Assembly: GCA_964527765.1 (NCBI GenBank)
Contig: CAZGQR010000003.1
Span: forward strand, 6,156-70,155
DNA length: 64,000 bases
From: an uncultured Planctomycetia bacterium
GTDB lineage: Bacteria > Omnitrophota > Gorgyraeia > Tantalellales > Tantalellaceae
Direction: 5' to 3'
A program made the position numbers and the translations under genes. The notes under the pieces were generated by a model. The model had not been told where the DNA came from. It searched no databases and saw nothing but the letters and a program-made list of their open reading frames with translations. This document shows, piece after piece, positions 5,730 through 54,134 of the stretch (position 1 is its first letter; every line of letters begins with the position of its first letter).

Positions 5730-6308
5730 TCAATCTGTAATGACCCGGGAAACGGGTCTGTCATGAGGGTCCGAGGGCAGGGAATCCGCCGCCTGAAAAT
5801 GAAAAGCCAATCCTATTGCCTTTGCCGAAGATAGATCCTTACTGGCGAGGAACCTGTCATAATACCCTTTTCCTCTGCCCAATCGCATGTTCTTTTTGTC
5901 ATAAGCTATTAGTGGCACCACTACCAGATCTATCTCCCTTAAAGGTATTGTCCCGGCAAGACCTTCTTTCGGCTGGTATATCCCGAAAGGGCCCTTTTCC
6001 AGGTTTTTTATTGCTGTAAGCTCAGAAGCTATTATAGTTTGACTATTCGGCTCGATATAAGGAACCGCTACCCTTTTCCCCTGTTTCAATGCCTCTTCAT
6101 TAAGATAGTAAGTGTCCACTTCTGTGGGCAAAGAAACGTATGTCATGACTGTCCTCGCAGCTCGGAATTCCTCACTGGAAAGAAGCTTTTCCTGTATCTT
6201 CCGGCTCCTTTCTTCCCTCAGTGAGGGACCCTGGCCCCGCAGACGCCTTATTTTCTCCTTTCTAATCTCCTCTTTTCTTTCCCTTATGTGCGCCAATTCT
6301 TGGTTCAT
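5730..6308 (-). CDS. 5-formyltetrahydrofolate cyclo-ligase
   Basis: Motifs VAVPYIE...IDLVVVPLIAYD...RLGRGKGYYDR are present. The track ORF extends to 6410, but the internal Met at 6308 avoids overlapping nifU, so it was used as the start. Confidence 0.75.
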   Translation of the reverse strand: MNQELAHIRERKEEIRKEKIRRLRGQGPSLREERSRKIQEKLLSSEEFRAARTVMTYVSLPTEVDTYYLNEEALKQGKRVAVPYIEPNSQTIIASELTAIKNLEKGPFGIYQPKEGLAGTIPLREIDLVVVPLIAYDKKNMRLGRGKGYYDRFLASKDLSSAKAIGLAFHFQAADSLPSDPHDRPVSRVITD

Positions 6309-8853: not shown

Positions 8854-9798
8854 ATGGACAAGCTTCGTATCGCCGTGGTAGGGGCCGGGCATCTCGGTTC
8901 CCTTCACGCTAAAGTGTATTCCGCGATAAAGAGAAGGTGCGGGATCTCACTGGTCGGCATCTGCGACGTAAGCAAAGAAGCGGGCGAAGAGATAGCCAAG
9001 AAATACAACACGGGCTATTTTGCCGACTACCACGATCTTATCGGAAGGGCCGATGCCGTAAGCATAGCCGTCCCCACGAATCTGCACCATGCAGTCGCAA
9101 GGGATTTCCTGAAAGCAGGGGTACATGTTCTGATCGAAAAACCGATCACGAGGACCCTGGAGGAAGCGGACGAACTGATCGGCCTGGCCGAAAAAAAGGA
9201 TCTTATCCTGCAGGTAGGGCATATTGAAAGGTTCAATTCCGCCGTCCGGGCGGTGGAGCCCCTGCTGAGCAAGCCGAGATTCATAGAATGCCAAAGACTG
9301 GGTTCCATCAAAAAGAAGAAACGCATCAAGGATGTGGGGGTGGTGCTTGATCTTATGATCCACGATATCGATATCATCCTCGGCCTGGTGAACTCCAGGG
9401 TGAAGAACATCGAAGCTGTCGGCATAAGCAGTGTTTCCGATCATGAAGATCTCGCTAACGTCCGTCTTTCTTTTCAGAACGGCATAATAGCGGATATCAC
9501 GGCCAGCCGGGTGACCAGAGAAGAGATCCGCAAGATCCGCATCTTCCAGGAACAATCCTACATACTCCTGGATTACCTGCACCAGGAGGCCTTTCTGTTC
9601 CGGGGCTCCGACAAGAAACTTAAAAAGAAAAAAATAAGGATCAGGAAAAAGGAGCCGCTAAAGGTCGAACTTAAATCTTTTATCGACTGCGTCCGGAACA
9701 ATAAAAGGCCTGTCGTCTCGGGACAAGAAGGCAAGCAAGCCCTTCGGGTCGCCCTTAATATACTGGAAAAGATCAACAGCGCCCAGCGGCTTCTATGA
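8854..9798 (+). CDS. Gfo/Idh/MocA-family NAD(P)-dependent oxidoreductase
   Basis: Rossmann motif RIAVVGAGHLGSLH and the EKP motif. Start set at the ATG with an AAGGGG RBS. An 18-nt gap to lpxB suggests co-transcription. Confidence 0.8.
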   Translation: MDKLRIAVVGAGHLGSLHAKVYSAIKRRCGISLVGICDVSKEAGEEIAKKYNTGYFADYHDLIGRADAVSIAVPTNLHHAVARDFLKAGVHVLIEKPITRTLEEADELIGLAEKKDLILQVGHIERFNSAVRAVEPLLSKPRFIECQRLGSIKKKKRIKDVGVVLDLMIHDIDIILGLVNSRVKNIEAVGISSVSDHEDLANVRLSFQNGIIADITASRVTREEIRKIRIFQEQSYILLDYLHQEAFLFRGSDKKLKKKKIRIRKKEPLKVELKSFIDCVRNNKRPVVSGQEGKQALRVALNILEKINSAQRLL

Positions 9799-9816
9799 TT
9801 TGCGCCGCTTCTACCG

Positions 9817-10950
9817 ATGAAAAAAAACATCCTCATAATAACCGGCGAGCCTTCCGGCGACATGCGCGCCGGTGAACTCATCAGGGAGCTTAAGGAATTT
9901 CTTCCGGATATCTCTTTCTGGGGTATCGGCGGCGATCGCATGCGTGCGCAGAACGTGGAACTGATAGAGCATATCCAGCACTTTTCCCTGGTCGGCGCGT
10001 GGGAAGTCGTCAAAAACCTGTCCCGGATCCGCAGGCACTACAAGAACTTGATCAGGAACATACGGAAAAGAAAACCCGACCTGGCGATCCTGATCGATTA
10101 TCCGGGGTTCAATCTGAGGGTAGCCAGATTCCTTCACAGTGAAAAAATACCGGTTATCTACTACATAATACCGCAGGTCTGGGCATGGGGGCGTCACAGG
10201 CTGAAATCGCTAAAACGCTTTGTAGACAAGGCGCTTGTCCTTTTTAAGTTCGAAGAACATTTTCTTAAACAGGCCGGCATAGATTGCGAATTCGTGGGAC
10301 ATCCTTTACTGGATAACATTACTTCATCCGGAGGTCCGGCGGCCAGGAGCGGCGCCTTCACCATAGCCCTTCTTCCCGGTTCCCGGAAAAACGAGATACT
10401 GGGTATATTCCCCGTCATGCTTGAGGCCGCGGAAAAAATACACGGGCAGCGGAAGGACGTTCAGTTCGTTGTCGCGGAAAACTCCAATGTTGACAAAAGT
10501 CTATATGATTCGGCTCTCGCGGGACACGGCGGCCTTACCGTATCCCGCTTTACGAACGACACATTCACCTGTCTTGACCGCTGTGATTTTGCCATGGTGA
10601 CTTCCGGCACGGCCACGCTGGAGACGGCTATCATGGAAAAACCGATGGTAATCGTATACCGCGCAGCTTTCCTGACGTATGTCCTTTTCCGCCTCTTCAT
10701 GAGGATCCCTTTCATCGGCCTGGCCAACATAATAGCCGGGGAGGAGGTCGCCCCCGAACTGCTTCAGGGAAATTGCACATCGGAAAAACTATATCGGAAG
10801 GTCCTGGAGATCACGGGCGATGATTCCCGCATGCGGTCCATGAAGAGCAAATTGAGGGAAGTCAAACGTTCTCTGGGAGAGAGGGGAGCAAGTAGAAAAG
10901 CCGCTGAAACGATAAGCCGGTTTATTGAAGAAAAGATCCCCGCTAAATAA
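9817..10950 (+). CDS. lpxB: lipid-A-disaccharide synthase
   Basis: MKKNILIITGEPSGD...WGIGG N-terminus and the PGSR motif; glycosyltransferase family 19. Confidence 0.9.
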   Translation: MKKNILIITGEPSGDMRAGELIRELKEFLPDISFWGIGGDRMRAQNVELIEHIQHFSLVGAWEVVKNLSRIRRHYKNLIRNIRKRKPDLAILIDYPGFNLRVARFLHSEKIPVIYYIIPQVWAWGRHRLKSLKRFVDKALVLFKFEEHFLKQAGIDCEFVGHPLLDNITSSGGPAARSGAFTIALLPGSRKNEILGIFPVMLEAAEKIHGQRKDVQFVVAENSNVDKSLYDSALAGHGGLTVSRFTNDTFTCLDRCDFAMVTSGTATLETAIMEKPMVIVYRAAFLTYVLFRLFMRIPFIGLANIIAGEEVAPELLQGNCTSEKLYRKVLEITGDDSRMRSMKSKLREVKRSLGERGASRKAAETISRFIEEKIPAK

Positions 10951-31548: not shown

Positions 31549-32565
31549 TCATAAGGGTCCGTGCGGTTCGATGATCACCTTGATGGACTCGTCGGCCGCG
31601 GCGACGAGCTGAAAGCCCCGGCCGGTCTCCGCCAAGGGCAACCTGTGCGTAACCATCTCGCGCACAGGCACACGACCGGTGCGGATCAGTTCGATCGCCT
31701 CGACGGCATCCGACGGACTGTTGCCGTATGACGGCATCAGCTTGATCCCGTTGCGCCAGAATTCGTTAAGCGGCACGGAAAGCTCAATGCCCGGCTCCGT
31801 CGGCGCGAAGAAAAGGACCGTTCCCCCGCGGTCCACGGACCGCAGTGCCTGGTTGAACGCGGGCAAAGCCCCGGTGCACACGATCACCAGGTCAACGAGC
31901 CTTTTATCGGCCCGGAGCAGCCGGGCGGGGATATCTTCGCGGGCGCTCAGCACTTCATCCGCTCCGAACCGCCGCGCCATTTTCATGCGATACTCATTGA
32001 TATCCGTCATGATTATCTTGCCGGCCCCAAGGGTCCGGGCCAGTAGCAGATGAAGCAGCCCCGAGATCCCGCTACCGAGTATGAGCACGCTCTGGCCGGG
32101 CTGCAGGTTCGCTATTCTTTGCGCGCGGCATACGCAGGCCAGCGGTTCAATGAACACCCCGTCCTCGAAGGAGACCTCGTCGGGCAGCAGAAACGTCCCG
32201 CGGTCCACGTTGATCCGCGGCACCCGTATATATTCGGCGAACCCGCCGGGATCATAATTGGTGTTATGCAGGGTCTCGCAAACGGTATGATGTCCGCTCA
32301 AACAGTAATGACAGGTGTTGCAGGGTACGTGGTGGGAAACAAAGACCCTGTCGCCGGCCTTGTAGCGCTTTACGCCTTCGGCTGTCTTGACGATCTCGCC
32401 GGCGATCTCATGCCCCAGCACCAGGGGGGCTTTCTTAGCGCGGTACCATTCCATTACGTCGCTGCCGCAGATGCCGCTGGTCATGACTTTCACCAGCAAT
32501 TCCCCGGGGCCGATCCCGGGCACCGGCATCTCTTCCAGCCGCACATCGTCGTTCTTGTAGTACAT
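31549..32565 (-). CDS. zinc-dependent alcohol/threonine dehydrogenase (MDR family)
   Basis: GICGSDV, GHEIAGEIV and the second-zinc CxxCxxCxxxxxxxC motif. Start set at MYYKND. Confidence 0.75.
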   Translation of the reverse strand: MYYKNDDVRLEEMPVPGIGPGELLVKVMTSGICGSDVMEWYRAKKAPLVLGHEIAGEIVKTAEGVKRYKAGDRVFVSHHVPCNTCHYCLSGHHTVCETLHNTNYDPGGFAEYIRVPRINVDRGTFLLPDEVSFEDGVFIEPLACVCRAQRIANLQPGQSVLILGSGISGLLHLLLARTLGAGKIIMTDINEYRMKMARRFGADEVLSAREDIPARLLRADKRLVDLVIVCTGALPAFNQALRSVDRGGTVLFFAPTEPGIELSVPLNEFWRNGIKLMPSYGNSPSDAVEAIELIRTGRVPVREMVTHRLPLAETGRGFQLVAAADESIKVIIEPHGPL

Positions 32566-32626
32566 CGCTACTTTCAAAAATGTCCCCTTTTTTGCGCCTC
32601 CCGAGCGATTCCGCGTGTCTTGCGGA

Positions 32627-33421
32627 TCATCCGCTGTTCCTGGCCTCATTGAATATCTCGTGGGCCGTTTCAGCGGTGGCGTTCTCATGGACAACGGCCC
32701 GCAGGGCCTTGGCCATGGCCACGGGATGCGCGTTCTGCCAGACGTTCCTTCCCAGATTTATGCCGATAGCTCCCTTCTGCATGCCGTCATGGACGAATTC
32801 CAGCACTTCAAGCTCTGTCTTGCATTTCGGCCCGCCCGCTATGACCACCGGAACCGGACAGCCCTCCACGACCTTATCGAAATCCTTTTCGCACCAATAG
32901 GTCTTCACCACCCGCGCCCCCAGCTCCGCGGCAATGCGGCAGCTTAAAGCAAGATAACGGGCTTCCCGTTTTTCCGTTTCCTTGCCAACAGCCGTGACGG
33001 CCATCACGGGAATGCCGTAATTCTCGCACTCGTTAACGAGTCCGGCAAGATTCAGCAGTGTCTGGCGCTCATGATCGCTCCCGACAAAAACAGAAACGCC
33101 TACAGCGGCCACGTTGAGGCGGATGATCTCCTCGATAGAAGTGGTTACGCCTTCATCCGCCAGGTCCTTCCCGGCCATGCTGGTACCGCCGGATACCCTG
33201 AGAATAACGGGTTTAGCGCCCGCCGGGTCCACGGATGCGCGCAATACCCCCCTTGTGACAAAAAGAGCGTCACAAAAGGGAAGAAGCGGTTCGATGGTCC
33301 GGCCCGGTTTTTCCAAACGCGTGGTAGGTCCCTGGAAATATCCGTGATCTATGGGCAGAAAGAAACAATGACCGTCCGGTTGGATAAGCTGATTCAGCCG
33401 GTTTTGCATTCCCCAATCCAT
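32627..33421 (-). CDS. class I aldolase of the DhnA / archaeal-type FBP aldolase family (DeoC/LacD superfamily)
   Basis: Conserved block IRLNVAAVGVSVFVGS...VVKTYW (Schiff-base Lys region) typical of DhnA-type aldolases. Confidence 0.65.
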   Translation of the reverse strand: MDWGMQNRLNQLIQPDGHCFFLPIDHGYFQGPTTRLEKPGRTIEPLLPFCDALFVTRGVLRASVDPAGAKPVILRVSGGTSMAGKDLADEGVTTSIEEIIRLNVAAVGVSVFVGSDHERQTLLNLAGLVNECENYGIPVMAVTAVGKETEKREARYLALSCRIAAELGARVVKTYWCEKDFDKVVEGCPVPVVIAGGPKCKTELEVLEFVHDGMQKGAIGINLGRNVWQNAHPVAMAKALRAVVHENATAETAHEIFNEARNSG

Positions 33422-33514
33422 TTTTCATGCCTCCTTGTGTTATGTTAACAGGTCAGATTAACAGCCTGCAATATCAGGTTAGTCTAACACAGGCCATATA
33501 CAGAGTCAACATTT

Positions 33515-33652
33515 GTACCGTTTGCGATTTCAAGCTTCAAAGTGTCCCCTAAATCGAAGCTTGAAAGTGTCCCCTTCCCCTCGGAGAGAAGGGGGGACAC
33601 TTTGATAGCACAAAAATGGGGACACTTTGATAGCTAATTTCGCAAACGGTAC
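33515..33652. repeat. 138-bp nested palindromic element
   Basis: 13-bp terminal IR GTACCGTTTGCGA/TCGCAAACGGTAC. Inside it are two direct copies of AAGCTTsAAAGTGTCCCC, a central palindrome, and two inverted copies GGGGACACTTTGATAGC. Confidence 0.6.
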
Positions 33653-33687
33653 AAAGTCAGGGGGGCTTTCGGTGTCAATAAAAACCC

Positions 33688-33715
33688 TTGTTTATGATCG
33701 GAATTTCCTTATAAT
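33688..33715 (+). promoter_or_regulatory. candidate promoter TTGTTT-N16-TATAAT upstream of ppiD-like gene
   Basis: Hexamers read directly from the sequence; AGGGAGA RBS at 33762. Confidence 0.3.
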
Positions 33716-33776: not shown

Positions 33777-35234
33777 ATGGTATTAAAAATACTTCGGAGC
33801 AGGAAATTCGCCAAAAGGGTGCTGTTGGGTCTGCTTATTCTCATTATCCCGGCCTTTATCCTCTGGGGGGCCGGCAGCGTCACAAAAGGCCCGGGACTGA
33901 TAGGCAAGATCGGCAAGCAAAAAATATATCTTAACGATTTTGCGAAAAGCAGACAGGGGATAAAGGTCCAGGTGCTCTTTACGTACTATGGGGACCTGAA
34001 CACCTTGAACCAGATACTGCAAAACCGCCCCATGATCAATTTCATGGCATGGGAAAGGCTTGTCCTCCTTAATGAAGCCAGGAGCAGAAAGATAAAGGTC
34101 GCCAATGATGATGTCCTGTCTTTTATTTCGCAGCACCCGCTGTTCCTGAGAGACGGCGCCTTTGATAAAGGGGTGTATAATTACATCCTGCGGAACAATC
34201 TTTCCGTGGGGCCGCGCCAGTTCGAAGAACTTGTAAGAGAGAACCTTCAGGTAAAACTATTGCGGCATGACCTGCTGAAAAATATAAATATCACGGAAGA
34301 AGACGTGCTGGAATATTACAGGACGATGAACGACCGGATCGAATTTTCCTACATGACGATCGATAAAGCCCCCTTTTCGGAAGACGTCACTGTATCGGAC
34401 GAGGAAGCCAGGGAATTCTACGAAGCGAACAAAGACAAGTTCTTCGAGCCCGCCAAGGTCGAGGTGGAATATATAGAGCTTTCGTACGAAAACGCTTCCG
34501 AGAAAAGCTCGGTCGCCGGCGAAATGGAAAAGATCTATCCGGAGCTCAGCAAGTTCCCGACACGATTCAGGCAGATAGCGGACGAGCACGGGATGCGCTA
34601 CGGCGACACCGGCCCCTTCTCGCGCAGGGACGCGATCCCCGGGATACCGTTCTTCAAGGACTTCCACGACATGGCTTTTGCCATGAAGGAAGGCGAAATA
34701 AGCCCTCTCGTATTCTCAGCGCCCGAAAAAGGATCGGCATACGTGCTGCGCAAAGTGCGGGATATCCCGCCCCGGCACCAGGGCTTTGAGGAACTGCGGC
34801 CGGATATCATGAAGAACCTCGCGGAAAGAAAAACCCTTCTCCTGGCCGAAAAAAAGGCGAACGAACTTCTTGCGAAAATGGCAGAAACGGGAGCGACCCT
34901 GGAAGAAACGGCAAGCGAGCTGGGGCAAGAAACGCAAAAGACCGAACCTGTCGCCTTCAGCGGGTATATTGAGAACATCGGCCCGGCGAAGGAGATCATC
35001 ATTCACGCGCATAAGACCGGACAGGGTAAGCTTATGCCTCCGGTGATCACGCAAAAGGGGGCCCTCCTCATGCGGGTAGACAATATCCTGCCGGCCGACG
35101 AGGCCGATTTTGAAGAGAATAAGGAGACTTTGCGCAGAAACCTCCTGATGCAGAAACAGGCGAACACTCTGGACAAATGGTTCAGGGAGGAAGCGCCGAA
35201 AGTAGAGTTGAAAAAAGCTCTGGAGGAACTGTAA
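33777..35234 (+). CDS. ppiD: PpiD/SurA-like periplasmic chaperone (N-terminal TM anchor)
   Basis: N-terminal TM helix plus SurA-N-like chaperone architecture. No clear parvulin catalytic motif was seen. Confidence 0.65.
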   Translation: MVLKILRSRKFAKRVLLGLLILIIPAFILWGAGSVTKGPGLIGKIGKQKIYLNDFAKSRQGIKVQVLFTYYGDLNTLNQILQNRPMINFMAWERLVLLNEARSRKIKVANDDVLSFISQHPLFLRDGAFDKGVYNYILRNNLSVGPRQFEELVRENLQVKLLRHDLLKNINITEEDVLEYYRTMNDRIEFSYMTIDKAPFSEDVTVSDEEAREFYEANKDKFFEPAKVEVEYIELSYENASEKSSVAGEMEKIYPELSKFPTRFRQIADEHGMRYGDTGPFSRRDAIPGIPFFKDFHDMAFAMKEGEISPLVFSAPEKGSAYVLRKVRDIPPRHQGFEELRPDIMKNLAERKTLLLAEKKANELLAKMAETGATLEETASELGQETQKTEPVAFSGYIENIGPAKEIIIHAHKTGQGKLMPPVITQKGALLMRVDNILPADEADFEENKETLRRNLLMQKQANTLDKWFREEAPKVELKKALEEL

Positions 35235-42792: not shown

Positions 42793-42805
42793 ACTTCACC
42801 AACCT

Positions 42806-43018
42806 CAGGGACGTTTCTCATTTTGTTCCTAGACCGTAAATTATTTTACTCCCAGACCTGTCCCTAAATTTGTTCTCAGACCTGTCCCTCTACTTATTCT
42901 CTAAATTATTGGGGACAGGTCTGAGATTGGCCTTGGGGACGGGTCTGAGATTGAATCTGGGGACAAATCTAGGTTTAGGATTTTGTGCGGTCTAGGTTTG
43001 ATTTGAAAAACGTCCCTG
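42806..43018. repeat. 213-bp element, bounded by inverted repeats, containing a complex repeat array
   Basis: 11-bp perfect IR CAGGGACGTTT/AAACGTCCCTG at the ends. Inside are two or three direct copies of yCAGACCTGTCCCT and three or four inverted copies GGGGACrGGTCTGAGATTG. The element fills exactly the gap between the tRNA-fMet 3' end and the giant-ORF stop. Confidence 0.6.
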
Positions 43019-43019
43019 A

Positions 43020-46000
43020 TTATGCTGCGGTGCGGATTTTTGTTTCCTGGGTTCTATATCTTTCACGCAGTTCTTCGAATTCGACAGGTATCGCTTTTGG
43101 AAGGATGAAAATGTAGATGTCGGGGAATCTTTCGTCTTTCTTTACTGTTATGCCAAAGTCCCCGCTGTCTATACCCGGATCAAAGGCAAGCTCAAAAGCC
43201 AGCGTCAGCATTTCCATGATATAACTGTAAGTATTTTCGGTCAAATTCCTATTGTCCACCCCCGCCAGGAAAATGTCCTTATCTTTTCTCAGGGCCTCGA
43301 ATTCCCCGGAGGTAACGGTATTTTCATGGGATAACACTATGACTTTCGCGTCTTCATTACCCTTCTTGGCTTTTTCGGTCTTTACGGCTGTCAGCAGGTC
43401 TTTATCTTCCCTGTCTATAAAAATTATGTTCTGCGACTTGCAGAAACCCCTTAAGGCCATTATCAGGCGGTTCAGGACCTGGTGCTGGAGAGATCCTTTC
43501 TTTTCATATCCTCTTATCCAATCCGTCCCGAGAGCAAAAATAACTTTCTCACCCGGTTTTTTCCTTTCAAATGCCCGGACAATAGCGGTATCAATAAAAT
43601 CCTGAGCGATCTTTGCATCCCTGTCAATAGCGTGCTCCTTTTCCCTGTCCTCGGCTTTGGCCCGCTCGGAACTGGGCGGCATAATGGATCGCCACTCCTT
43701 CAGTTGCCTGAACCCTTTAACATCATTTTTAAACCCTTTATAGCCGTACATTATGGTGAACAGCGCATCCGGCCGCGTATATCCTTCTTTGCGCGGCAGG
43801 ACCGCGGCAATCACCGCCTTATTCTTCACGACATGGAAGTTCTCGACCAAATCGCGCGCCTTTGCCTTTTCCTCTTTGAAAAACTCTTCCGGGAGAATAA
43901 ACCCTTCCTCTGCGATACGCCTGAGATATGTCTCGTACCCGCCCCCTCTCAGGGAAACCAGATAAAGAAATATGCCGTATTTCTCTATAATCTTCTCCGG
44001 GATGCCTTTTTTCTCCAGCTCTTCCCTGAACCCATCAAAACCGACAGCCGGACTGAACGTGCTTATATAAGGAACGTCATCAAAATGTGCTTTTGCTTTA
44101 TCTATAAACATCTGACCAAGGTTTATATTCCGGGTGGCATCGTCTTTTGAGGATCCTATCGCCCAGAAAAGAAGCGTATCAAAAGGACCTTTACCGGATT
44201 TTCCGCTGAACATGTTATCCCATAAAGGATATTCTTCGATTTTTGCAAGTTCGCCTCCCGTATTAAGCGGATAAGTAAGAAGAACGCCCCTGACCGGCTT
44301 TTCGATCCCCTTGATCTTCAATAGATAGACCATTTTTTGCCGTATAAGGTGCCGCATTTGCTCTTTTGTCAGTTGTAAAAATTTGCTCCTCACCCAGGAC
44401 TCGTTATGGACGGAAAGAGCCTCGTCCAGTTCGGCTGCACCGGCCTGCGTGATCTCCGTTACTTCCCAGTTTATTATGTTGCATAGTGATCTGCCTAATC
44501 GCCCTTCGTACAATTTCGATTCATCCGGCGAGGCAATTGTCCGGAAAAGATATTCGTCAACCAGTTCCGGCGGCCCGTGATTCTGCAACCAGGCGATCAC
44601 ATCGGTGGCAAGAAAGAGTTCCCCGGCTTCCGCATCGTTCCGGTACAGGATAAAATCATCGGGTGATTCCATTATGGACTTAAAGCCGTATATCTTATAT
44701 TCCTTCAGCTTCTCCAGCTGATCCTGCAATCGGCTTCTGTCTTCATGGGATAATTCTTCTCCTTTCAGGGCATCTTTAAACAAGCTGATTATTTTATCCT
44801 TATATTGCCCGGTAATATCGTTCTGTCTCGTTTCCGAAAGCTGAGACCTGAATTTCCCGCGGGCCCCTGCGGTTTCGTCGTCCGCGCGGAGGTTATCTTC
44901 CTCGGGCTGCGGAAGGGGAAGATTCGGCACGGTCACCGGACCTTCGAAGGGAACCATCCCGTTTGGCCCGTATTTGATCACAAAATCATTGGGCTCAATG
45001 CCGAATTCGCGCAGTTTCGAGACAAGCCCCAGTTCCTTCATCAGGTCAAACGTGGCTTTCTGATTTCTGGAAAACCGGAATATCAACGTCAGGGTATCTT
45101 CCAGCCTTTCCTTCATATAAGGATCTTCTTCCCATTGATAAGTTTCGGCGCATTCCTTTATCAGCTTTTTGGTCTGCGGCGTAAGTTCAAGATCAAATAG
45201 ATCGATAAATTGGACAGCCCGTAAAAATTGCGGCATGTGCAGGTTCTCCGGCGCTATTTTTTCTTTCTCGCCTGTCTTTTTGCCTACCAGGCGCGCCGCT
45301 TTCCTCTTGAAATCCGCTATCCCCCCGTGTATATCTATGAGTTCTATCTCATCCCCTACTATCTTGAATCCGATCCTGTTCATGGACAGATCCGCCATCG
45401 GATCCGGCTCTATGTTGCCTTCTTCGTCAAGCACGCCCAGAACATCTATCGGAAAACCCCGGAAATTAAGGAACGCTTTTTCGAAGAGCCTGTAGGGAAT
45501 ATCCTCCACTTCTATCCTGTTACCTGCCTTGCTCAGCGCAAATGCAAGGTCGGACATGGTATCCCACGTGTTTACGCCCGTCTTTTCCTGTATGGCCTCT
45601 TTTTCAATAACAATGTCAAAATCCGACGGCGTCTTGTTAAGCAATAAGCTCCTTACCGCGCCGCCATAGATGATAATGCGGCTCAGGTCATTTCTCCTGA
45701 GGAACTGTAAAAATGTCTTAACTATTCCTTCCGGAAGCTCGTCGATCCTGAACCTGCTGCCATGGCCTAGATCTTTTCTTTCCATCAAAGGCAGTTTCCT
45801 GGGCCTGGTAAGAAATTCTTCCCTCTGAAGTTCTATCTCTTCATCCAGCGTTGCCGCGAATTCCCAGGCCTTGTCGGGCTCGAAAATGAACCATTCAAGA
45901 AAGTCCGGCGAATGCGTTGTCTGCATCCCGATGATCTTGAAGAAGGCCCTTCTCGCCTGGGGACGGATGAACACCCTGCCTTCCCCGCCTTCCCTCAAGC

Positions 46001-49000
46001 TTATGTTGATCAGGCTTTCGACCATCCGTCTGCCGACGCCCCTTAACTTTCTTCCTTCCTTTTCCCTTTCCGTATTATGGCGGGCGACCTCCAGGATCTT
46101 GATGCAAACACCGGGGCCCAGACCATACCTTCCTTCCCTGTCCATCTCATAGACGCATAATGCCTCCAGTATCCCTTTCGCGGTATAGGCCTTCAGGACT
46201 TTGTATTTTTCGTCAACGTTCTTCCATTGATCGTCTTTTTTCATGAACTGCGTGAACCATCGGAACATCTTGGTGTATTCGCCCTGTATGAGCTGATGCA
46301 CCTCATCGGAATCCGCCGGCTCTATCCAGATCTTTATCCTGTCCCCGCTTTTGGCCCCCATGACGAAAGTGGATACTGCGCCTTCCTCTCTTTCCTGCGC
46401 TTTCTCCTTTTCTTCCGGCTGATGAGAAATGGGCGTTTCGAACTGTTGGGAAGGAAACATGGTAACGGATATTTTTGTCTCGTTCGGGTCCGATTCGAAG
46501 AGGTCGGCATGGTTCCCGGCCGGGTCATGATAATACCTTACGCCTTTGCCCCTGCTGGCGCCTTCCACCGTAATGTCATCGATCCGCCCGAGGCGCCTGA
46601 GGCCCGACAGAAAAACACCTCTCACCGATTCAAGGGTGCTCTCCGGGGACACATATTTTCTTCTTACCCGTGGTTTTTCAAACGCATCGGGCACCGGTAT
46701 GCCCCTGCCGCGGTCCACGGCCATGATACGCACGCCCACCGTGCCGTCCGCCCTTTTGACCTTTTCGATCCTGAAATAGAAATCAGCTTCGGGCTGCGCG
46801 AGTGAAACGAACTCCTGCATGTTCTTGACCAGCTCACCGAACAGAAATTCCGCCAGTTGCGCGCGGTTGCGGAAATCCTGCGGAACGACCGGCGCAACGC
46901 CCGGGTCAAAGCCGATGGGTTCCCTGGCATCCCCGGGGCTTAAGGCCTTGAACATCTCCATTGCCTTGCGGTTTTTGGCATCAACGGTCGGGCGGCGCAA
47001 AGGCGATTCCGCTTCTTCCTTGGTTACGACGACTGAATCCAGAACCGAAAGATCTTCGGGCGGCTGTGCGTGACGGGAAACTATATATTTTTTCTCGAAT
47101 TCGCCCTGGTCAAGTCCGGATCGACCGGAGAGACGCTCCTCTATTATATCCCTCAAAGCCTTTCCCAATAATCCCTTGTACGGGGTGAATTTAAGCTGCT
47201 CCTGAAGTTTTCTTTTATCGGGATAATTGTCGGGAAAAAGGTCCTGCTGGACTAAAATGGCGTTGTAATGGCCCAGGAAGGGGCAGAGAAGTTCGTGCAG
47301 CAGATATTCGTCGACAATGGCCGGAGAACCGCGGTTTTCCAGTTCGGTAATAACATCAGTGGCAAAGAACAGTTCTTCTCCTTCATCATTCCGCCCCAGG
47401 AAAAAATCGTCCGGTCCGTTTACAATAGACTCAAAGCCGTATATCCTGGTCTTCCCTTTCCGCAGTCCCTCCAGCAGGCCCTTCAGGGATATTCTCTCGT
47501 ACTGCGGTATCTCAAGCTGCGGCAGGTCGATCATGCCCGATAACCGTACTATCCTGTCCCTGTATTCGTCCGTAATATCGTTCTTTTTGATATCATCAAG
47601 CCGTGACAGGAATTCTTTCAGCGGATACACGCCCTGCCATATAAAACCGTCGGGCCCCGCATTGCCGGGCATTATTGCCGAAAATGCTTTCTTCAATCTC
47701 GTGTTTTTGGCAATTCTATCTATGATATTCTTGCAGACCCCAAGGACCGAAGATTCGCTCATGCCATACCTGTCCATCAACTCCCTGGTTGTGTCATCAT
47801 CAAAATACTTTTCCTTGAAGATCTGTATATCCCTTTCCTTGTGCCTGGTATCCGGAAGGACCTCCTTCAGAAGGTCCAGAAGCTCCTTTATTTCTTCATC
47901 GGTCAGCGCCGTGAGCCGACCTCTGCGGAAAATATGATCGGCATCTTCCTTAATGGGACCGGTCAGACTTACTTCTCTATTCCTTTTGAGGCGCCTGTAA
48001 TGATCCATTAAGGCATTTTGGAAAGCCGCCTGAAAATACGGCACGAATATCTCGTGCTTGTGATCTCCGAACGCCAGCACCGTCTTCATGAGAACATCGT
48101 TCAGAAGGTCGGACAGGCCGTGATCCCCGATATCATCCTTATGATTATTCATTACGCCCTGCACGGCATGTTTGCATACGGCATGAAGAGCGACGAAACT
48201 GGCCTTGTTGCCCGTTTCCGCATCCAGGGCCAAGGCGACTATATCGGCGTTGGTTAAGCTGCCAAAATGCCGTTTGACAAATTTTTCAAGGCCGTGGGGC
48301 AGATCTTCGTATCCCCTGTACCTGTGCAACAGCTCCTTCGTCTTTGACCAGCTGTCCTCTGTAAACCTGAGCTCCTTTCTTCTTAAGGGCAGGAGGTTCC
48401 TTATCCCCAGATGTTTCTTGATTATTCTGAGAGCCCTGTGAAAAGAACCTCTGCCGGAAAGCCCGTTCATTCTCACGTAAAACGTTAGAAGGCCGGACAG
48501 TGATTTGCCGCCGAACGCCTCAAGCTGTTTGGCAAGATCGACCGTATCCACTTCCCCGGATTTTTTACCCGCCTCCCGCGCAAGTATTTCCACAAGATGA
48601 CGGCGGGCCTCCTTCATTACCCTGGGCCACCTGATCTTCTTTTTCCTGAATTCTTCCAGCACGGTGTCGGGGCCTATAATTATGCCGCCTTTTTCAAGCT
48701 TTTCTCTGGCGGCTTTTGTCTCGGCGCTGGCGGGTTTTGCGCCAAGATCCTTAAGGATGGATGTTACGATCTCCAATTCAACAGGTTTCAAGACCATCGC
48801 CCGGTATACCGCGCCCCTGCCGCTCCCTTTTCTTTCCACAAGGCCGAGACGGTCCAGCACCCCCAGGTCGCGTTTTATTGTATGTTCCATCGACAGGCCG
48901 CTCTTTCCGGCGATATCCTGAGCCGAAATAAATCTGTTTTCCGCCCTGAGGATCTCGAACGTGTTGTAGGGCGAGCCTTCGGAGGTCGGCGGCACTGCGC

Positions 49001-52000
49001 CGGGCTCCGGGCGCTTTTTGCCGATCATGATGCCGTCCACTTCCTTTATAAGCTCGGTCAGAAGTCTATCGCCGGCGTTTTCCTTCTCGGATAGTTCCTT
49101 GTACTTTTTTAAGGCCCTTACCAGCTTATTGATTTTTCTCGTCGGTTTTCTTCTCTTTTTGTCGGGCAGTTTGCGGAACGTCGATTTTATGCTCTCCAGC
49201 AGAGTGACACACAGGGCATATACATCGTCCCTGGGCAGGCAAAGTTCTCTTGTCGGGGTATCTTCGGCTTTGACCCTGTTGATCCTGTCCCCGCTCATGT
49301 AATACCCTTTGGTGAACCATTTCCGGATCTTGTTTATCCTTCCCCCCTTGTCCAGCGGGGTCACGGTGTCATTATCGACATACACCACTCTTTTTAACGC
49401 TCCGTTATCTTCCACGGCCATGATCGCGGTGGGGTCGATATCGCCGTGAACATACCCGTTATTCAAGTAGGTCTGCCTGTATCCTTTCAGGGTCTTTTCC
49501 GCCAGGTCAAGAAAGGCCGATTCTACGGCACGAAGGGGCCTCAGGCGCAGCGCCCTGGCATGATCTTCCAGGGTCCTGCCGTCAATGAATTCAAAAAGAG
49601 GCACTTTCTTGCTTGAAAACCCGTCCATGCCGTCCGTGGGGACCAGGCCGATGAACTTGGGCAGGCAGGGGTTTGTATTCGCGGGGTTTATGAAGGAAAG
49701 GATCTCGACCTGAGGCAGCAGGAAGATCTCCAAATTGCCGTGCCGATGGCCATACAATGTCGAATCTTTCGTAATATAATAATTGCCCTTTTTGAGCTCT
49801 ATCGCGTTGGTGAGGATCTTATCTTCCCCGACATATTCGTATTTCCGCAACACGGAATTGCCCGTTTTAATAAGCCCGGTAAATTTAAAATCTCTTTCAA
49901 AATTCCTTATGCGGGGGACCCTGCTGACCGCTTTCCGGACCGCCTGAACATCCTTTTCGGGGGGTGCGGCGCTAAGCGTGATAATGGAAAATAAACGTCG
50001 GCGGAGCCTTTCCTTTGCTGCTCGTTTTTCCCCGGCGGAAGGCCGCGGGCCGAGCTTTTTAAGGACGGGTTCCGCGATCTCCCATCCTGCCGGGCTCAGT
50101 TCCATCGCCCTGAATATGGCGTAATCGCCTTCACCGTCCTTTTCGACCAGACCGAGAAAAACGAGTGTCCCCAGGTCGCGTTTTACCACTTCAAGCGAAA
50201 GATGCCCGTCTGGCATCCCTCCTTTCGTTTCCAGCCGGATCTGCTCGGCAAAGGCAAAGCCTTCTTTTGCCCGCAGGATCTCGAACATGCTGCATGGAGA
50301 GCCTTCGGCAGGCGGATCTTCACGCTGCAAACCATCTCCCCTGCCCGATCTCGCCTTCTCCTTGGAAATTATATAGGCCCTTGAATTGCTGACCAGGCCG
50401 AATGAGTCTGCGGAAACCGCCAGTCCCGTTTTTTCGCTCAGCAGTTCCTCCACATACTTCAAGTAGCTGTTGACCAGAACCGCTTTGCCGCCATCGGTCA
50501 TATGTTCAGCTATATTTGCGGCGACCCGCTTCAGGACCGCTTCGCCAAAGTCCTTTACGTTCCTGTCATCGGGCGTTATCAGCCCGGTACCCAGGTCCAC
50601 ACTGCTCCCGTGCGGCATGGTTATATGCGGCATGTTGAATATGATAAGGTCATACTGACCCAGCCCGTCGAACAGGTCATTGCGAAAGGCGTTTACCCTG
50701 CTCCCGGCGCCTCCCAAAGAACAGGTGAGCTTCGTGTTCTCCACCGCCATCTCTTTTATGTCCACCGCGTCTACAAAAGCCCCTTTCTCGGCGGCTATGC
50801 GGGCCTCAAGCCCGCTGCCCGTCCCGATGACCAGCACCTTCATCCCGGGTTTGGCGTATTTTAAGGCGGCTTTCGCGCTTACTTCGCTTGAGGGGTTGAC
50901 GCCGGTATAAACACCCGGCAGAACAGGAATGCTTAAAACCGTCATACCCGGCGGGTATGCTTTGCCGTCGGTGGGCGGGGCGGACTTTATCTCGATCAAT
51001 TCTCCGGAATTATCGAACATGGCATACGCGTAAGCGGACTTAAGAACCCGGGGCCAGAAATCGGGGAACAATTTCTTCTTTCTTTTTTTCGCGGATTCCG
51101 CTTTCCTCTTGTCGCTGTCCCCGTAATAAACGGACAGGTCTATGACCACGGGGTCCTTGCCTGTTCTTTGCAGGCTTAAAAACAGAGGTTTATCGTTATG
51201 GTTCACTATCGACAGGGCCCCTTCCAGCTCATCCTTCTCCAAGACCCTGAATGCCGTCCTGATCGCGTAACTGTTGAGTTTTTCCAGCGGCACCTCGGCA
51301 ATGTCGAACCCTTTTTCCCTTCGCCACTCCAGTTTCGCGGGAACAATACCCAATGCCCTGAAGATCCTGCTCGCGACTTCAGAAAATTCCGCGGGCGGCT
51401 GGATCAGGTGAAATTCCAGCGTTATCATCGTGCCGGCAGTGATATCGCTCGTGCCGCTCTGGGCGAACCAGAGCCCGGCATTCTCGTCCGTGCTGATCCC
51501 GGTCCACTTCTCGCCATACGCTTTTCTGCCTTTCGACTCGATCACGACATGATCCGGATCGAACGCTATCCTTTTGAAGCCGAAGCCCCTGAGCGCGCCT
51601 TCCGCGGCTTTGATGCTGTCCCTGACCAGTTCGTTCGGATCACGCGTCAGGCCTTCTCCGTTATCCACGGCAACGATCTTCAGGCCGGTGATCGCGCCGG
51701 ACTTGTCCCTTCCGGCGTACACCCGGATGACACCTCCCCTGCCGTGTTCCATGATATTGCGCGCCAGCTCGTTGAGAACGTCGTCTATGCTGACTCTTTT
51801 ACCTTCCGGAACTTCTTCGATGCTCTTGATGAATTTTCTTATTTCGCCGGACACAAAATCCTCATGGGCTTCGGTAATAATGCCCGGCATCTCAAGCTCA
51901 AACACGGGTCCGGCCGGGTCGGGGGCCTTGCGTTTTATCCCCGCCCATTTCCTTGCCACGACCTTGGTGCCCCCGTGCTCCATTTCCGCGTCCCTGGCCT

Positions 52001-54134
52001 TTTTCGTCTTGAACCATTGCCGCCCCCGGGACAAGATCTCCACATAGTCCATATCCCTGACCAGCCTGGTCAGGGCCATTCCCGCGCTTCCCCCTGTTTT
52101 ATCCAGGGAAACCCCCTCTTTCACCGCCAGGGCGATATCCCTTATCCCTTTTCCGTTATCCAGGGCGACTACCTCTACACCTCTGCCTTTTTTCTCGCTG
52201 TATATCCCGCGTGCCAGGAGCACCCCGAATCCGGTTACCACATGCTGTTCCACGTTTTCCGCCAGGCCCACAAGAGACCTGATCACCTTGGAAGCTTTTA
52301 TGTCGCTCAGGCCTAAATTTTTTACCAGACCGGGGATATTTGTCTTTTCCACAATCGCTACCGCTTCTGACGGCTTCATGCTCAACAGTTTCTCGATCTT
52401 TCTCCTGCCCCGCCTGCCGACAAAAAGAGCCCACCTGAACCCGTAAAAACTTTCAAGAACGCACAAACTTTCCTTGAGAGCTTCTTCGTTCATATCACAC
52501 AACGCCTGCCAGGCCCTGCCTATCAGGTCCTCAGTCGGTATGATTTCTTCCGGCGCGGTCGCGGCATCCCTCGCGGCGAAGGGCTTCTGCCTTATCCTCA
52601 GGTCCCAGCCATAACCGCTGCTGTTCCCCGCCAGGAACGCCGGCACCATCAGCGTAAGCAGGATCCGGTGCTTGATATCCTCGATCTCGGGGTCCTTGAT
52701 CTCCTTAAGAGAGATCGGAAAGTCAGGGCCTTTGTCAAAATAGGCCATGTCCTCCGGGACACACACGTAATCGTCCGTAATAAGGTACCCGCCCGGTCTC
52801 ATTTGTTCGTAGATGCGGCATATGAAACTGCCCCATCCTTTTTCATAGTCCTTGGCGGTTTCATTGGCGGCTCTCTGATAATAAATATCGATCCTTTCCC
52901 CTTCGAGCATTTCTTCATATTGGCGGGGCCTGGTGATATCGGCATTTATGAACGTTATCGAATAGGTCTGTTCCTTTGCGCCCCTGTACTGCCAGTCAAA
53001 CGTTATGCGGGGATGGCCTTGATCCGAATCGACCTTCACCGTCGAAAGATCCACCCCTATCGCTTTCAGCTCAAAAGCGATCGCCGCGGTGATCTTTCTC
53101 CTGTTCTGAAGCGTCCCGCCGTTGGCGAAACCCCACTTGAATTTTTCGCAGTAAAGATCGGCGTTGAAATATTTTCTCAGGTATTCTTCGGGACCATCGT
53201 CCTTAAAGCACTTCTTGAGTTCCGATTCCGAAAGCTGATAGAAAATGCCGCTATAATCCGAGATGAAATATCCCCTGGTCGCGTTGGTCGAAAGAAGAAA
53301 GTTCGAGATGTCGGCGCCGGCGGCGCCGTAAACCGCCGTCAGGGGCCTGTTGTCCGGGTTCACGAATCTCTTTATCGCCATGCCGTGCTCGACATGCATT
53401 CTCTGGAGAAGGCCCGCATTGATCGGGCGATAGTCGATCTGTTTCTTCCCATCAAGGGGTGAAGTTTTTTCCGTCTCCGGAAGCGAGGCTTCTTCCGCCC
53501 GCGGGAACGGGGTTTTCCCCCGGTCTTTTTGTCCGGCTGAGATACCTTTTTCCGGCACGATCCGGGAAGATATGGCGCCCCACCCTTCACACATGATCTT
53601 TGCATCCCCGATCTCGATGGGTATTGCGGCTCCGCCGCGAGATTCAAGCGGTTCATCTCCCGGCAAGTAATAGCGGAGGGTCACCGTTTCGGGGCTTCCT
53701 TCTCTCTTGTAGGGCAGGCAAAAAGTGTTTCCTTCTTTATGCAATTCCTGCCATTTAAAGCTTTCGAAATCTATATGCGAGATGTGCTTCTTAAGAAGTT
53801 TTTCCCTGAGGCCATCCGCGCTTATCATGCTTCCGGACTGGGCCAGCACCTGCCCTATTAAAATGCTGAGATAAATGAACCCGGCATCCTCCTGGAAATC
53901 TTCTTTGGCTCTCGATCCCGCCGCTTCATTTTCATTAACAATGACCTGGCCGCTCTCGCGCACTTTCACGCTGATGATGGGGCTGAGTCTCGAAGGAGGA
54001 GAAAGGGTGTGGACGCTTTCCCGCGCCGCGCCGGGCTCGAGCGCGTAGGAAATGTTGCTGAAAACGAACAGGCATATTATGCCCGCCGATACGGCCTTGA
54101 ACCACAACTTGTGCGTATTGAAATATCTTTCCAT
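43020..54134 (-). CDS. giant multidomain protein (3704 aa), function unknown
   Basis: A single uninterrupted 11.1-kb ORF. The N-terminus is a signal peptide or signal anchor. Motif-level evidence supports GHKL kinase, SAM methyltransferase, wHTH, kinase-like, ECF sigma, class II nucleotidyltransferase and duplicated modules; see findings. Confidence 0.85.
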   Translation of the reverse strand: MERYFNTHKLWFKAVSAGIICLFVFSNISYALEPGAARESVHTLSPPSRLSPIISVKVRESGQVIVNENEAAGSRAKEDFQEDAGFIYLSILIGQVLAQSGSMISADGLREKLLKKHISHIDFESFKWQELHKEGNTFCLPYKREGSPETVTLRYYLPGDEPLESRGGAAIPIEIGDAKIMCEGWGAISSRIVPEKGISAGQKDRGKTPFPRAEEASLPETEKTSPLDGKKQIDYRPINAGLLQRMHVEHGMAIKRFVNPDNRPLTAVYGAAGADISNFLLSTNATRGYFISDYSGIFYQLSESELKKCFKDDGPEEYLRKYFNADLYCEKFKWGFANGGTLQNRRKITAAIAFELKAIGVDLSTVKVDSDQGHPRITFDWQYRGAKEQTYSITFINADITRPRQYEEMLEGERIDIYYQRAANETAKDYEKGWGSFICRIYEQMRPGGYLITDDYVCVPEDMAYFDKGPDFPISLKEIKDPEIEDIKHRILLTLMVPAFLAGNSSGYGWDLRIRQKPFAARDAATAPEEIIPTEDLIGRAWQALCDMNEEALKESLCVLESFYGFRWALFVGRRGRRKIEKLLSMKPSEAVAIVEKTNIPGLVKNLGLSDIKASKVIRSLVGLAENVEQHVVTGFGVLLARGIYSEKKGRGVEVVALDNGKGIRDIALAVKEGVSLDKTGGSAGMALTRLVRDMDYVEILSRGRQWFKTKKARDAEMEHGGTKVVARKWAGIKRKAPDPAGPVFELEMPGIITEAHEDFVSGEIRKFIKSIEEVPEGKRVSIDDVLNELARNIMEHGRGGVIRVYAGRDKSGAITGLKIVAVDNGEGLTRDPNELVRDSIKAAEGALRGFGFKRIAFDPDHVVIESKGRKAYGEKWTGISTDENAGLWFAQSGTSDITAGTMITLEFHLIQPPAEFSEVASRIFRALGIVPAKLEWRREKGFDIAEVPLEKLNSYAIRTAFRVLEKDELEGALSIVNHNDKPLFLSLQRTGKDPVVIDLSVYYGDSDKRKAESAKKRKKKLFPDFWPRVLKSAYAYAMFDNSGELIEIKSAPPTDGKAYPPGMTVLSIPVLPGVYTGVNPSSEVSAKAALKYAKPGMKVLVIGTGSGLEARIAAEKGAFVDAVDIKEMAVENTKLTCSLGGAGSRVNAFRNDLFDGLGQYDLIIFNMPHITMPHGSSVDLGTGLITPDDRNVKDFGEAVLKRVAANIAEHMTDGGKAVLVNSYLKYVEELLSEKTGLAVSADSFGLVSNSRAYIISKEKARSGRGDGLQREDPPAEGSPCSMFEILRAKEGFAFAEQIRLETKGGMPDGHLSLEVVKRDLGTLVFLGLVEKDGEGDYAIFRAMELSPAGWEIAEPVLKKLGPRPSAGEKRAAKERLRRRLFSIITLSAAPPEKDVQAVRKAVSRVPRIRNFERDFKFTGLIKTGNSVLRKYEYVGEDKILTNAIELKKGNYYITKDSTLYGHRHGNLEIFLLPQVEILSFINPANTNPCLPKFIGLVPTDGMDGFSSKKVPLFEFIDGRTLEDHARALRLRPLRAVESAFLDLAEKTLKGYRQTYLNNGYVHGDIDPTAIMAVEDNGALKRVVYVDNDTVTPLDKGGRINKIRKWFTKGYYMSGDRINRVKAEDTPTRELCLPRDDVYALCVTLLESIKSTFRKLPDKKRRKPTRKINKLVRALKKYKELSEKENAGDRLLTELIKEVDGIMIGKKRPEPGAVPPTSEGSPYNTFEILRAENRFISAQDIAGKSGLSMEHTIKRDLGVLDRLGLVERKGSGRGAVYRAMVLKPVELEIVTSILKDLGAKPASAETKAAREKLEKGGIIIGPDTVLEEFRKKKIRWPRVMKEARRHLVEILAREAGKKSGEVDTVDLAKQLEAFGGKSLSGLLTFYVRMNGLSGRGSFHRALRIIKKHLGIRNLLPLRRKELRFTEDSWSKTKELLHRYRGYEDLPHGLEKFVKRHFGSLTNADIVALALDAETGNKASFVALHAVCKHAVQGVMNNHKDDIGDHGLSDLLNDVLMKTVLAFGDHKHEIFVPYFQAAFQNALMDHYRRLKRNREVSLTGPIKEDADHIFRRGRLTALTDEEIKELLDLLKEVLPDTRHKERDIQIFKEKYFDDDTTRELMDRYGMSESSVLGVCKNIIDRIAKNTRLKKAFSAIMPGNAGPDGFIWQGVYPLKEFLSRLDDIKKNDITDEYRDRIVRLSGMIDLPQLEIPQYERISLKGLLEGLRKGKTRIYGFESIVNGPDDFFLGRNDEGEELFFATDVITELENRGSPAIVDEYLLHELLCPFLGHYNAILVQQDLFPDNYPDKRKLQEQLKFTPYKGLLGKALRDIIEERLSGRSGLDQGEFEKKYIVSRHAQPPEDLSVLDSVVVTKEEAESPLRRPTVDAKNRKAMEMFKALSPGDAREPIGFDPGVAPVVPQDFRNRAQLAEFLFGELVKNMQEFVSLAQPEADFYFRIEKVKRADGTVGVRIMAVDRGRGIPVPDAFEKPRVRRKYVSPESTLESVRGVFLSGLRRLGRIDDITVEGASRGKGVRYYHDPAGNHADLFESDPNETKISVTMFPSQQFETPISHQPEEKEKAQEREEGAVSTFVMGAKSGDRIKIWIEPADSDEVHQLIQGEYTKMFRWFTQFMKKDDQWKNVDEKYKVLKAYTAKGILEALCVYEMDREGRYGLGPGVCIKILEVARHNTEREKEGRKLRGVGRRMVESLINISLREGGEGRVFIRPQARRAFFKIIGMQTTHSPDFLEWFIFEPDKAWEFAATLDEEIELQREEFLTRPRKLPLMERKDLGHGSRFRIDELPEGIVKTFLQFLRRNDLSRIIIYGGAVRSLLLNKTPSDFDIVIEKEAIQEKTGVNTWDTMSDLAFALSKAGNRIEVEDIPYRLFEKAFLNFRGFPIDVLGVLDEEGNIEPDPMADLSMNRIGFKIVGDEIELIDIHGGIADFKRKAARLVGKKTGEKEKIAPENLHMPQFLRAVQFIDLFDLELTPQTKKLIKECAETYQWEEDPYMKERLEDTLTLIFRFSRNQKATFDLMKELGLVSKLREFGIEPNDFVIKYGPNGMVPFEGPVTVPNLPLPQPEEDNLRADDETAGARGKFRSQLSETRQNDITGQYKDKIISLFKDALKGEELSHEDRSRLQDQLEKLKEYKIYGFKSIMESPDDFILYRNDAEAGELFLATDVIAWLQNHGPPELVDEYLFRTIASPDESKLYEGRLGRSLCNIINWEVTEITQAGAAELDEALSVHNESWVRSKFLQLTKEQMRHLIRQKMVYLLKIKGIEKPVRGVLLTYPLNTGGELAKIEEYPLWDNMFSGKSGKGPFDTLLFWAIGSSKDDATRNINLGQMFIDKAKAHFDDVPYISTFSPAVGFDGFREELEKKGIPEKIIEKYGIFLYLVSLRGGGYETYLRRIAEEGFILPEEFFKEEKAKARDLVENFHVVKNKAVIAAVLPRKEGYTRPDALFTIMYGYKGFKNDVKGFRQLKEWRSIMPPSSERAKAEDREKEHAIDRDAKIAQDFIDTAIVRAFERKKPGEKVIFALGTDWIRGYEKKGSLQHQVLNRLIMALRGFCKSQNIIFIDREDKDLLTAVKTEKAKKGNEDAKVIVLSHENTVTSGEFEALRKDKDIFLAGVDNRNLTENTYSYIMEMLTLAFELAFDPGIDSGDFGITVKKDERFPDIYIFILPKAIPVEFEELRERYRTQETKIRTAA

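Follow-up and report, generated by a model that had tools for sequence, protein, structure and literature searches.

Results

A nested palindrome between two divergent promoters

The locus lies in a 64-kb stretch of DNA that was analysed as a whole and is called the window here. A DeoC-type aldolase gene, paired with a Zn-ADH gene, is transcribed away from a PpiD/SurA-like gene (ppiD), and a first-pass annotation had described a nested palindrome in the divergent region between them. We found the flanking genes to be as described, with all the features of the palindrome in place at 33515-33652. The named homologues of this PpiD all belong to Candidatus Omnitrophota, which puts the window in that phylum. 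Its sequence is found on metagenome contigs, of which the longest measures 213 kb (ENA ERZ27256778), and also in JGI 3300017991. The features are as follows.

31549-32694, minus strand: Zn-ADH gene, paired with the aldolase gene
32627-33421, minus strand: DeoC-type aldolase gene, flanking element 1
33481-33509, minus strand: promoter-like site of the aldolase operon (TTGACT-17-TAGACT), both hexamers kept in relatives without element 1
33514-33653, no strand: element 1, the whole TGT...ACA unit, defined by anatomy, fold and profile match
33514-33527, plus strand: left terminal inverted repeat TGTACCGTTTGCGA with tip TGTACCGTTTGC, the tip being invariant in 8 arms from 5 copies
33532-33550, plus strand: left outer unit AAGCTTCAAAGTGTCCCCT, putative protein-binding site 1, with a AAGTGTCCC core invariant across arms
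33557-33575, plus strand: left inner unit AAGCTTGAAAGTGTCCCCT, putative site 2, a direct repeat 25 bp from site 1
33571-33595, no strand: central imperfect hairpin CCCCTTC...GAAGGGG; the centre differs in copies L136, L038 and L139
33593-33609, minus strand: right inner unit GGGGACACTTTGATAGC, inverted repeat
33618-33634, minus strand: right outer unit GGGGACACTTTGATAGC, inverted repeat
33640-33653, minus strand: right terminal inverted repeat TCGCAAACGGTACA, exact and with the family-invariant tip
33688-33715, plus strand: TTGTTT-16-TATAAT block upstream of ppiD, in alignment columns invariant in all relatives
33777-35234, plus strand: PpiD/SurA-like gene, the other flank of element 1
42805-43019, no strand: element 2, with terminal inverted repeat TCAGGGACGTTTCTC / GAAAAACGTCCCTGA; missing behind tRNA-Met in L129 and L131

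Element 1 is a non-coding unit of 140 bp (33514-33653) that opens with TGT and closes with ACA, and the ORF list of the window holds no ORF of 50 aa or more wholly inside it. Its ends, TGTACCGTTTGCGA...TCGCAAACGGTACA, include the 13-bp terminal inverted repeat reported by the annotation, which is indeed perfect (GTACCGTTTGCGA at 33515-33527, TCGCAAACGGTAC at 33640-33652) and reaches 16 bp when TTT/AAA is counted (TTTGTACC.../...GGTACAAA, 33512-33655). The arms are 38 nt long with a complementarity of 82%, and each carries two AAAGTGTCCCC sites with a period of 25 bp. Both pairs of repeats that had been annotated are present at this same period, namely the direct copies of AAGCTT(C/G)AAAGTGTCCCCT at 33532-33550 and 33557-33575, and the inverted copies of GGGGACACTTTGATAGC at 33593-33609 and 33618-33634, which are 100% identical. 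The proposed central palindrome is a short hairpin, though an imperfect one, in which CCCCTTC (33571-33577) pairs with GAAGGGG (33589-33595).

Across the 64-kb window, the 12-mer CAAAGTGTCCCC is found with 0-1 mismatch only at the four sites of element 1; four further matches have two mismatches each, which is chance level. Folded as single-stranded DNA, element 1 reaches -47.7 kcal/mol, compared with -16.3 +/- 3.1 for shuffled sequences (z = -10.3, none of 200 shuffles as good), and no other inverted repeat in the window ranks above elements 1 and 2. The -35 hexamer of the aldolase-operon promoter-like site abuts the left end of element 1, and the TTGTTT-16-TATAAT block begins 35 bp to its right. 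The population is carried by 17 samples; all 10 of its fetched contigs that have exactly this PpiD carry element 1, and no polymorphism was seen. At gathering score, Rfam matched only tRNAs in the window, and a permissive search gave only generic hairpin matches below threshold. Motif and phylum searches of the literature found no paper describing these elements.

Element 1 is missing from the orthologous spacer of two relatives

Next we compared the window with two syntenic Omnitrophota relatives, L129 (PpiD 74% identical) and L131 (PpiD 59% identical). The spacer upstream of ppiD measures 355 nt here, against 213 nt in L129 and 269 nt in L131. In the spacer alignment the TTGACT-17-TAGACT hexamers and the TTGTTT-16-TATAAT block are conserved, and the palindrome is missing from the aldolase/ppiD spacer of both relatives. 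Deleting about 143 nt from the window spacer raises its alignment score with L129 from 3 to 140. The empty site in L129 bears a weak likeness to the left tip (7 of 12 positions); this stretch could be a remnant, which would imply an old element retained in the lineage of the window. At the equivalent spacer position L131 carries a different long palindrome (GGTTCCACTCCCGGAGTGG...CCACTCCGGGAGTGGAACC, ~9775-9830).

The first-pass annotation had proposed binding sites for a common DNA-binding protein as one explanation. Since the sites are not conserved at this locus, a regulator devoted to the aldolase and ppiD promoters is unsupported; the proposal is tenable only for a protein of transposase type that would bind the arms.

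Related copies lie at unrelated Omnitrophota loci

A metagenome scan for CAAAGTGTCCCC-N12-16-AAAGTGTCCCC returned eight loci, with no contig of the window's organism among them. Two of the eight (L136 and L139) are related elements with the same tip; the other six proved to be unrelated simple repeats. The family now counts five copies at unrelated loci in at least four Omnitrophota genomes or metagenomes, two of them in one MAG. The L136 copy lies between hisA and hisF in another Omnitrophota genome; judged against the hisA-hisF spacers of 7 nt and 67 nt found in two relatives, it is an insertion. Two more copies turned up among the fetched loci, both in the MAG of Ca. Aadella gelida: one is complete with 182 bp (L038), the other a solo arm (L110). 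L139 has one full arm, the other being reduced to its tip with its sites gone. L139 and L110 are therefore decayed copies. The annotation had also suggested that small palindromic elements, mobile or structural, form a family, and this idea is borne out by the kindred copies at unrelated Omnitrophota loci and by the absence from the orthologous spacer. Its author had looked to both recurrence and conservation; we found that motif and inverted repeat recur elsewhere, but that the element is not conserved at orthologous loci. In a further Omnitrophota relative (L149, ~1434-1500), the hisA-hisF spacer holds a GTAG-headed, REP-like hairpin (GTAGCTGCA...TGCAGCTAC).

An nhmmer profile built from the eight arms recovered every arm with E = 1e-15 to 3e-18 (1e-15 to 1e-16 for those of element 1) and nothing comparable elsewhere. 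The tip TGTACCGTTTGC is invariant at 12 of 12 positions in the eight arms from the five copies, and so are both AAGTGTCCC cores across the family arms, while the spacers vary and the centres, of 9, 18 and 60 nt, are unrelated. A fixed tip and fixed cores combined with free spacers and centres are a pattern that transposon ends typically show. The left and right arms of the window element are 74% alike, whereas matching arms between genomes are 84-90% alike, and the left arm of L038 is 95% identical to the L110 arm of the same MAG. Because matching arms of different genomes resemble each other more than the two arms of one element do, the family stems from one polar progenitor and not from local palindrome formation.

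Further copies were absent from ~81 kb of the 213-kb contig (the 64-kb window plus ~17 kb more, ENA ERZ27256778), a stretch with one of each element. BLAST of element 1 against plasmids gave no match, nor did a search of viral contigs for the units of element 2. Six matches to tip plus site in viral contigs were dismissed as chance, all being within coding sequence and lacking a second site.

Next we examined the flanks for target-site duplications. Exact and shifted comparisons gave none, whether at element 2 or at any of the four bounded copies, the best flank matches being 2-5 nt and no better than those of shuffled sequences. The AGTCA present on both sides of element 1 was rejected as a duplication, since it is out of register and 309 of 2000 shuffles are as good. 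Short tandem duplications abut and overlap one tip in two copies and do not flank the element: a 16-bp one in L136 (CAGGCAATTGATTTGT x2, 6117-6148), which creates the hisA stop codon, and an 8-bp one in L139 (CTAAAGTT x2, ~4783-4800).

Insertion sequences with the same end design

We then scanned one genome per species for AAGTGTCCCC-N13-17-AAGTGTCCCC and obtained more than 118 loci, against a handful that we would expect by chance. One large class among these matches consists of the ends of a multicopy 1.44-kb insertion sequence (IS) of Acidobacteriota and neighbouring phyla. It was seen at L016 (4547-5990) and about 40 other loci in Acidobacteriota, Thermoanaerobaculia, Gemmatimonadota and Verrucomicrobiota MAGs, where it often terminates contigs and thus breaks assemblies. 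Its ends read TGT-N15-AAGTGTCCCC-N15-AAGTGTCCCC with the sites facing inward, so that the arm design of element 1 matches that of real IS ends. The IS has a single ORF of 431 aa (4632-5927 in L016) that matches NCBIfam NF033594 (ISNCY transposase) with E = 5e-114, and 14 of 21 copies are flanked by exact direct repeats of 15-17 bp. The end design is kept between transposases that are just ~47% identical. The ISTde1 subgroup of the IS1202 family is described as having TGT tips, a conserved inverted-repeat block near position 20 and direct repeats of 15-17 bp (bioRxiv 10.1101/2022.12.17.520857), and these are the traits of the 1.44-kb IS.

No IS1202-type transposase was found in the window or at any fetched Omnitrophota locus, and the window, fetched loci, viral contigs and plasmids yielded no full-length element bounded by the family tip.

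Element 2 follows the same plan on a larger scale

Element 2 is built on the plan of element 1 at a larger scale, with tRNA-Met on one side and the stop codon of a 3704-aa ORF on the other. Its 84-nt arms have a complementarity of 71% and contain 3-4 units each of CAGACCTGTCCC with a period of 23-24 bp; its fold gives z = -9.7. It is absent after tRNA-Met in both syntenic relatives, L129 and L131. The annotation had drawn the parallel between the two elements (placing this one at 42806-43018), and the common architecture and GTCCC core hold up; the tips and units differ, so that the two fall into different sub-families, element 2 being a second, separate family, and the tie between them is looser than the annotation suggests. 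A 13-nt similarity between its left tip and the body of tRNA-Met was set aside as chance level by our own estimate.

The only Pfam match of the 3704-aa ORF (43020-54134, minus strand) is a PolyA_pol-type nucleotidyltransferase head at aa 2822-2946 (E = 3e-5), and large ORFs occupy the equivalent place after tRNA-Met in L129, L130 and L131. In L130 (9637-9660 and 9724-9990), a relative at 71% identity, tRNA-Met stands in inverted orientation, and its 3′ end occurs a second time (TGGTTGCGGGGGGAGG) ~190 nt from the tRNA gene, an arrangement like that at the edge of integrated DNA. Just upstream are two GGGGACA units.

Inside-out arrays in operon spacers

A second class in the AAGTGTCCCC-pair scan comprises short palindromic arrays in which arms of 1-4 GGGGACACTT-type units frame an asymmetric centre that is specific to the genome, laid out as (GGGGACACTT... 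x1-4)-centre-(...AAGTGTCCCC x1-4). Their GGGG side points outward, which is the opposite polarity to element 1, and we refer to them as inside-out arrays. They are numerous in several Omnitrophota MAGs (JABMRG01, JAUSED01, JAQTUD01) and in one Magasanikiibacteriota MAG, and also occur in Desulfobacterota, Syntrophales and Bacillota MAGs. The Omnitrophota loci include L014, L020, L030, L032, L035, L049, L051, L063, L083, L087, L092, L097, L098, L104, L107 and L113, and those of Magasanikiibacteriota are L037, L059 and L060.

The arrays fill the spacers between co-directional housekeeping genes, leaving gaps of 0-30 nt (fabH-array-fabD-array in L107; others at purM and radical SAM genes). In a small sample, their centres stand in either orientation relative to transcription. 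Some have GGGGACGTTTC-type outer repeats that resemble the tip of element 2. We also considered IS circle junctions, for which the 35-37-nt spacing fits, but the centres are without ACA/TGT tips and the idea was rejected.

Other arrangements were seen as well. In an Omnitrophota MAG, the common core is put to another use in clusters of the perfect palindrome GGGGACAGTCCCC separated by A/T runs (L020 4241-4285; L083 1737-1780 and 3031-3076). Further GGGGACAC/GTGTCCCC array types, among them repeated GGGGACACTTTGGGGACAAAGTGTCCCC modules inside tandem repeats of ~75 nt, occur in unclassified, Bacillota and Syntrophales MAGs (L017 3390-3730; L081 7610-7860; L079 180-350; L123 4339-4420).

Discussion

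Collectively, the copies at unrelated Omnitrophota loci and the absence in the closest relatives favour selfish mobile DNA as the most likely nature of element 1, over regulator-binding sites that would serve the flanking genes. We are highly confident that it is a member of a repeat family which is dispersed and spreads horizontally. Element 1 is probably a mobile element of the MITE-like, non-autonomous kind, with arms that would serve as transposase-binding ends of the IS1202/ISTde1 design. How sure we can be of the specific enzyme and of present-day mobility ranges from moderate to low, given that the duplications and the partner gene are missing.

On this mobile-element reading, element 1 would amount to two transposon ends with almost nothing between them. 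Each arm would offer a cleavage tip, TGTACCGTTTGC, and two putative protein-binding AAGTGTCCCC sites, 25 bp apart and facing inward. A transposase acting in trans would occupy all four sites, bring the two ends together and mobilise the unit. The mobilising enzyme would most likely be of the IS1202/ISTde1 (ISNCY) type, since those IS have the same end design. Its present site may be the one dispensable part of the region that separates the two divergent core promoters, and the insertion there is probably neutral. The aldolase/ppiD gap seems to accept palindromic inserts repeatedly.

We weighed this reading against other explanations. Four identical sites placed symmetrically between two divergent promoters would suit an operator array for a transcription factor controlling the aldolase/ADH and ppiD promoters, yet the promoter blocks are conserved in L129 and L131 with the sites absent, the same element turns up in unrelated contexts such as the hisA-hisF junction, and element 1 lies outside both core promoters. 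A local operator role is largely refuted, because its sites are absent at the orthologous promoters, and we regard it as highly improbable. A host-maintained structural repeat akin to REP/BIME or BOX elements is a fair rival, though still a rather unlikely one. Such a repeat would spread by recombination with no dedicated transposase and would act through cruciforms, protein platforms or RNA hairpins that modulate mRNA stability, operon polarity or nucleoid structure. It would account for the lack of target-site duplications, the very stable hairpins of elements 1 and 2, the unit number of 1-4 per arm, as in modular repeats, and the presence of GGGGACA-unit arrays in tiny housekeeping-operon spacers and of the L136 copy between hisA and hisF. 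However, the family-invariant 12-bp TGT tip and the polar arms look like transposon ends, the element is unconserved at orthologous sites, and the either-way orientation of the array centres, in a small sample, argues against a strand-specific RNA role. Element 1 itself is upstream of each of the divergent promoters, in the region between them, and so need not be transcribed.

Another candidate is a larger element, Tn7-, Mu- or Tn402-like (or, for element 2, an integrative one at tRNA-Met), of which only the multi-site ends would be left; this would suit the TGT...ACA tips and the several phased subterminal sites of each arm. The unequal unit numbers of element 2 (3 vs 4), its position next to tRNA-Met and the duplicated tRNA-Met 3′ end ~190 nt off in L130 are in line with such an origin. 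Ends of Tn7 and Mu have a repeated site that includes the tip, and they produce a 5-bp duplication; the tip of element 1 is unrelated to its repeated unit and no duplication, of 5 bp or otherwise, is present, and Tn7/Mu-like ends were rejected. The only coding elements found with such sites are the 1.4-kb IS1202-type IS, no TnsB/MuA-like gene was noticed among the window ORFs scanned, and we think the remnant origin very unlikely. The GGGGACA arrays of Omnitrophota and some CPR (elements 1 and 2 and the far more numerous inside-out arrays in the gaps of housekeeping operons) might be more than junk and belong to one system that extends across the phylum. Such a system would insert by an unrecognised mechanism that leaves no target duplication, or a domesticated HTH protein of IS1202 type would bind it and tune operon expression or organise the chromosome, or both would apply; we rate this as quite unlikely.

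Taken together, at the level of the locus the mobile-element reading removes a tempting regulatory one, in which the four symmetric sites would have been an operator of the aldolase or ppiD genes. Omnitrophota, an uncultivated phylum, harbours families of small palindromic elements with units of 23-26 bp and a GTCCCC core. This core is common to IS1202/ISTde1 ends, and so provides a concrete candidate transposase-binding site for a poorly studied IS family. The element families may also serve as an annotation marker for repeats that break metagenome assemblies. The inside-out arrays in Omnitrophota operon spacers are a by-product of this work more intriguing than element 1.

Comparison with known systems

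REPs are single hairpins of 20-40 nt with a GTAG head that are mobilised by RAYT tyrosine transposases. Like the REP/BIME repeats of proteobacteria, the present elements are dispersed extragenic palindromes, often within operons and without target duplications. Unlike REPs, element 1 has units that are not self-complementary and no GTAG motif was seen in it, and on these sequence features the REP/RAYT class was rejected. IS200/IS605-type hairpin ends were likewise rejected on sequence features. Integron attC sites have the core sites R''/R', RYYYAAC ... GTTRRRY; element 1 ends in TGTACC/GGTACA and is flanked by housekeeping operon genes, and this class was discarded too.

BOX elements are small and intergenic, with repeated sub-units variable in number and complementary ends. 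BrickBuilt elements are small intergenic elements with repeated sub-units of ~23-45 nt, a copy-variable unit number and complementary ends (PMC4596501). The likeness to both lies in the small intergenic elements of repeated sub-units; the sequences and hosts are different, and the units form two opposed arrays here instead of one tandem run.

Prokaryotic MITEs are non-coding elements of less than 500 bp with terminal inverted repeats, intergenic, dispersed, able to fold into long hairpins, accompanied by truncated derivatives and tolerated in operons; their direct repeats wane in old copies (PMC10969869). Element 1 is similar to MITEs such as Chunjie of Geobacter, Correia of Neisseria and MITEAba12 in being small, non-coding, bounded by terminal inverted repeats, intergenic and foldable, in having truncated derivatives and in occurring within operons; its kindred copies were seen at unrelated loci of other genomes, against one copy in ~81 kb of its own. 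It differs from them in that no family copy has a target-site duplication, no cognate autonomous IS with the family tip was found in the window, fetched loci, viral contigs or plasmids, and the arms carry two phased internal sites instead of a simple terminal inverted repeat.

Compared with IS1202/ISTde1 elements, element 1 is without a transposase gene and without direct repeats of 15-17 bp, and its tip is unlike theirs beyond TGT. Its GTGTCCCC motifs lie at 29-36 and 54-61, as opposed to 19-26 and 44-51 in the Acidobacteriota IS, which places the first site 10 bp farther from the tip. The likeness is one of end design: the TGT tip is there (33514-33516, with ACA at 33651-33653, and the same in L136 and L038), each end has two AAGTGTCCCC sites with 25-bp phasing and CCCC inward, as in the Acidobacteriota copies, and in other copies of the family the inner-site context ATTAAAAGTGTCCCC is identical.
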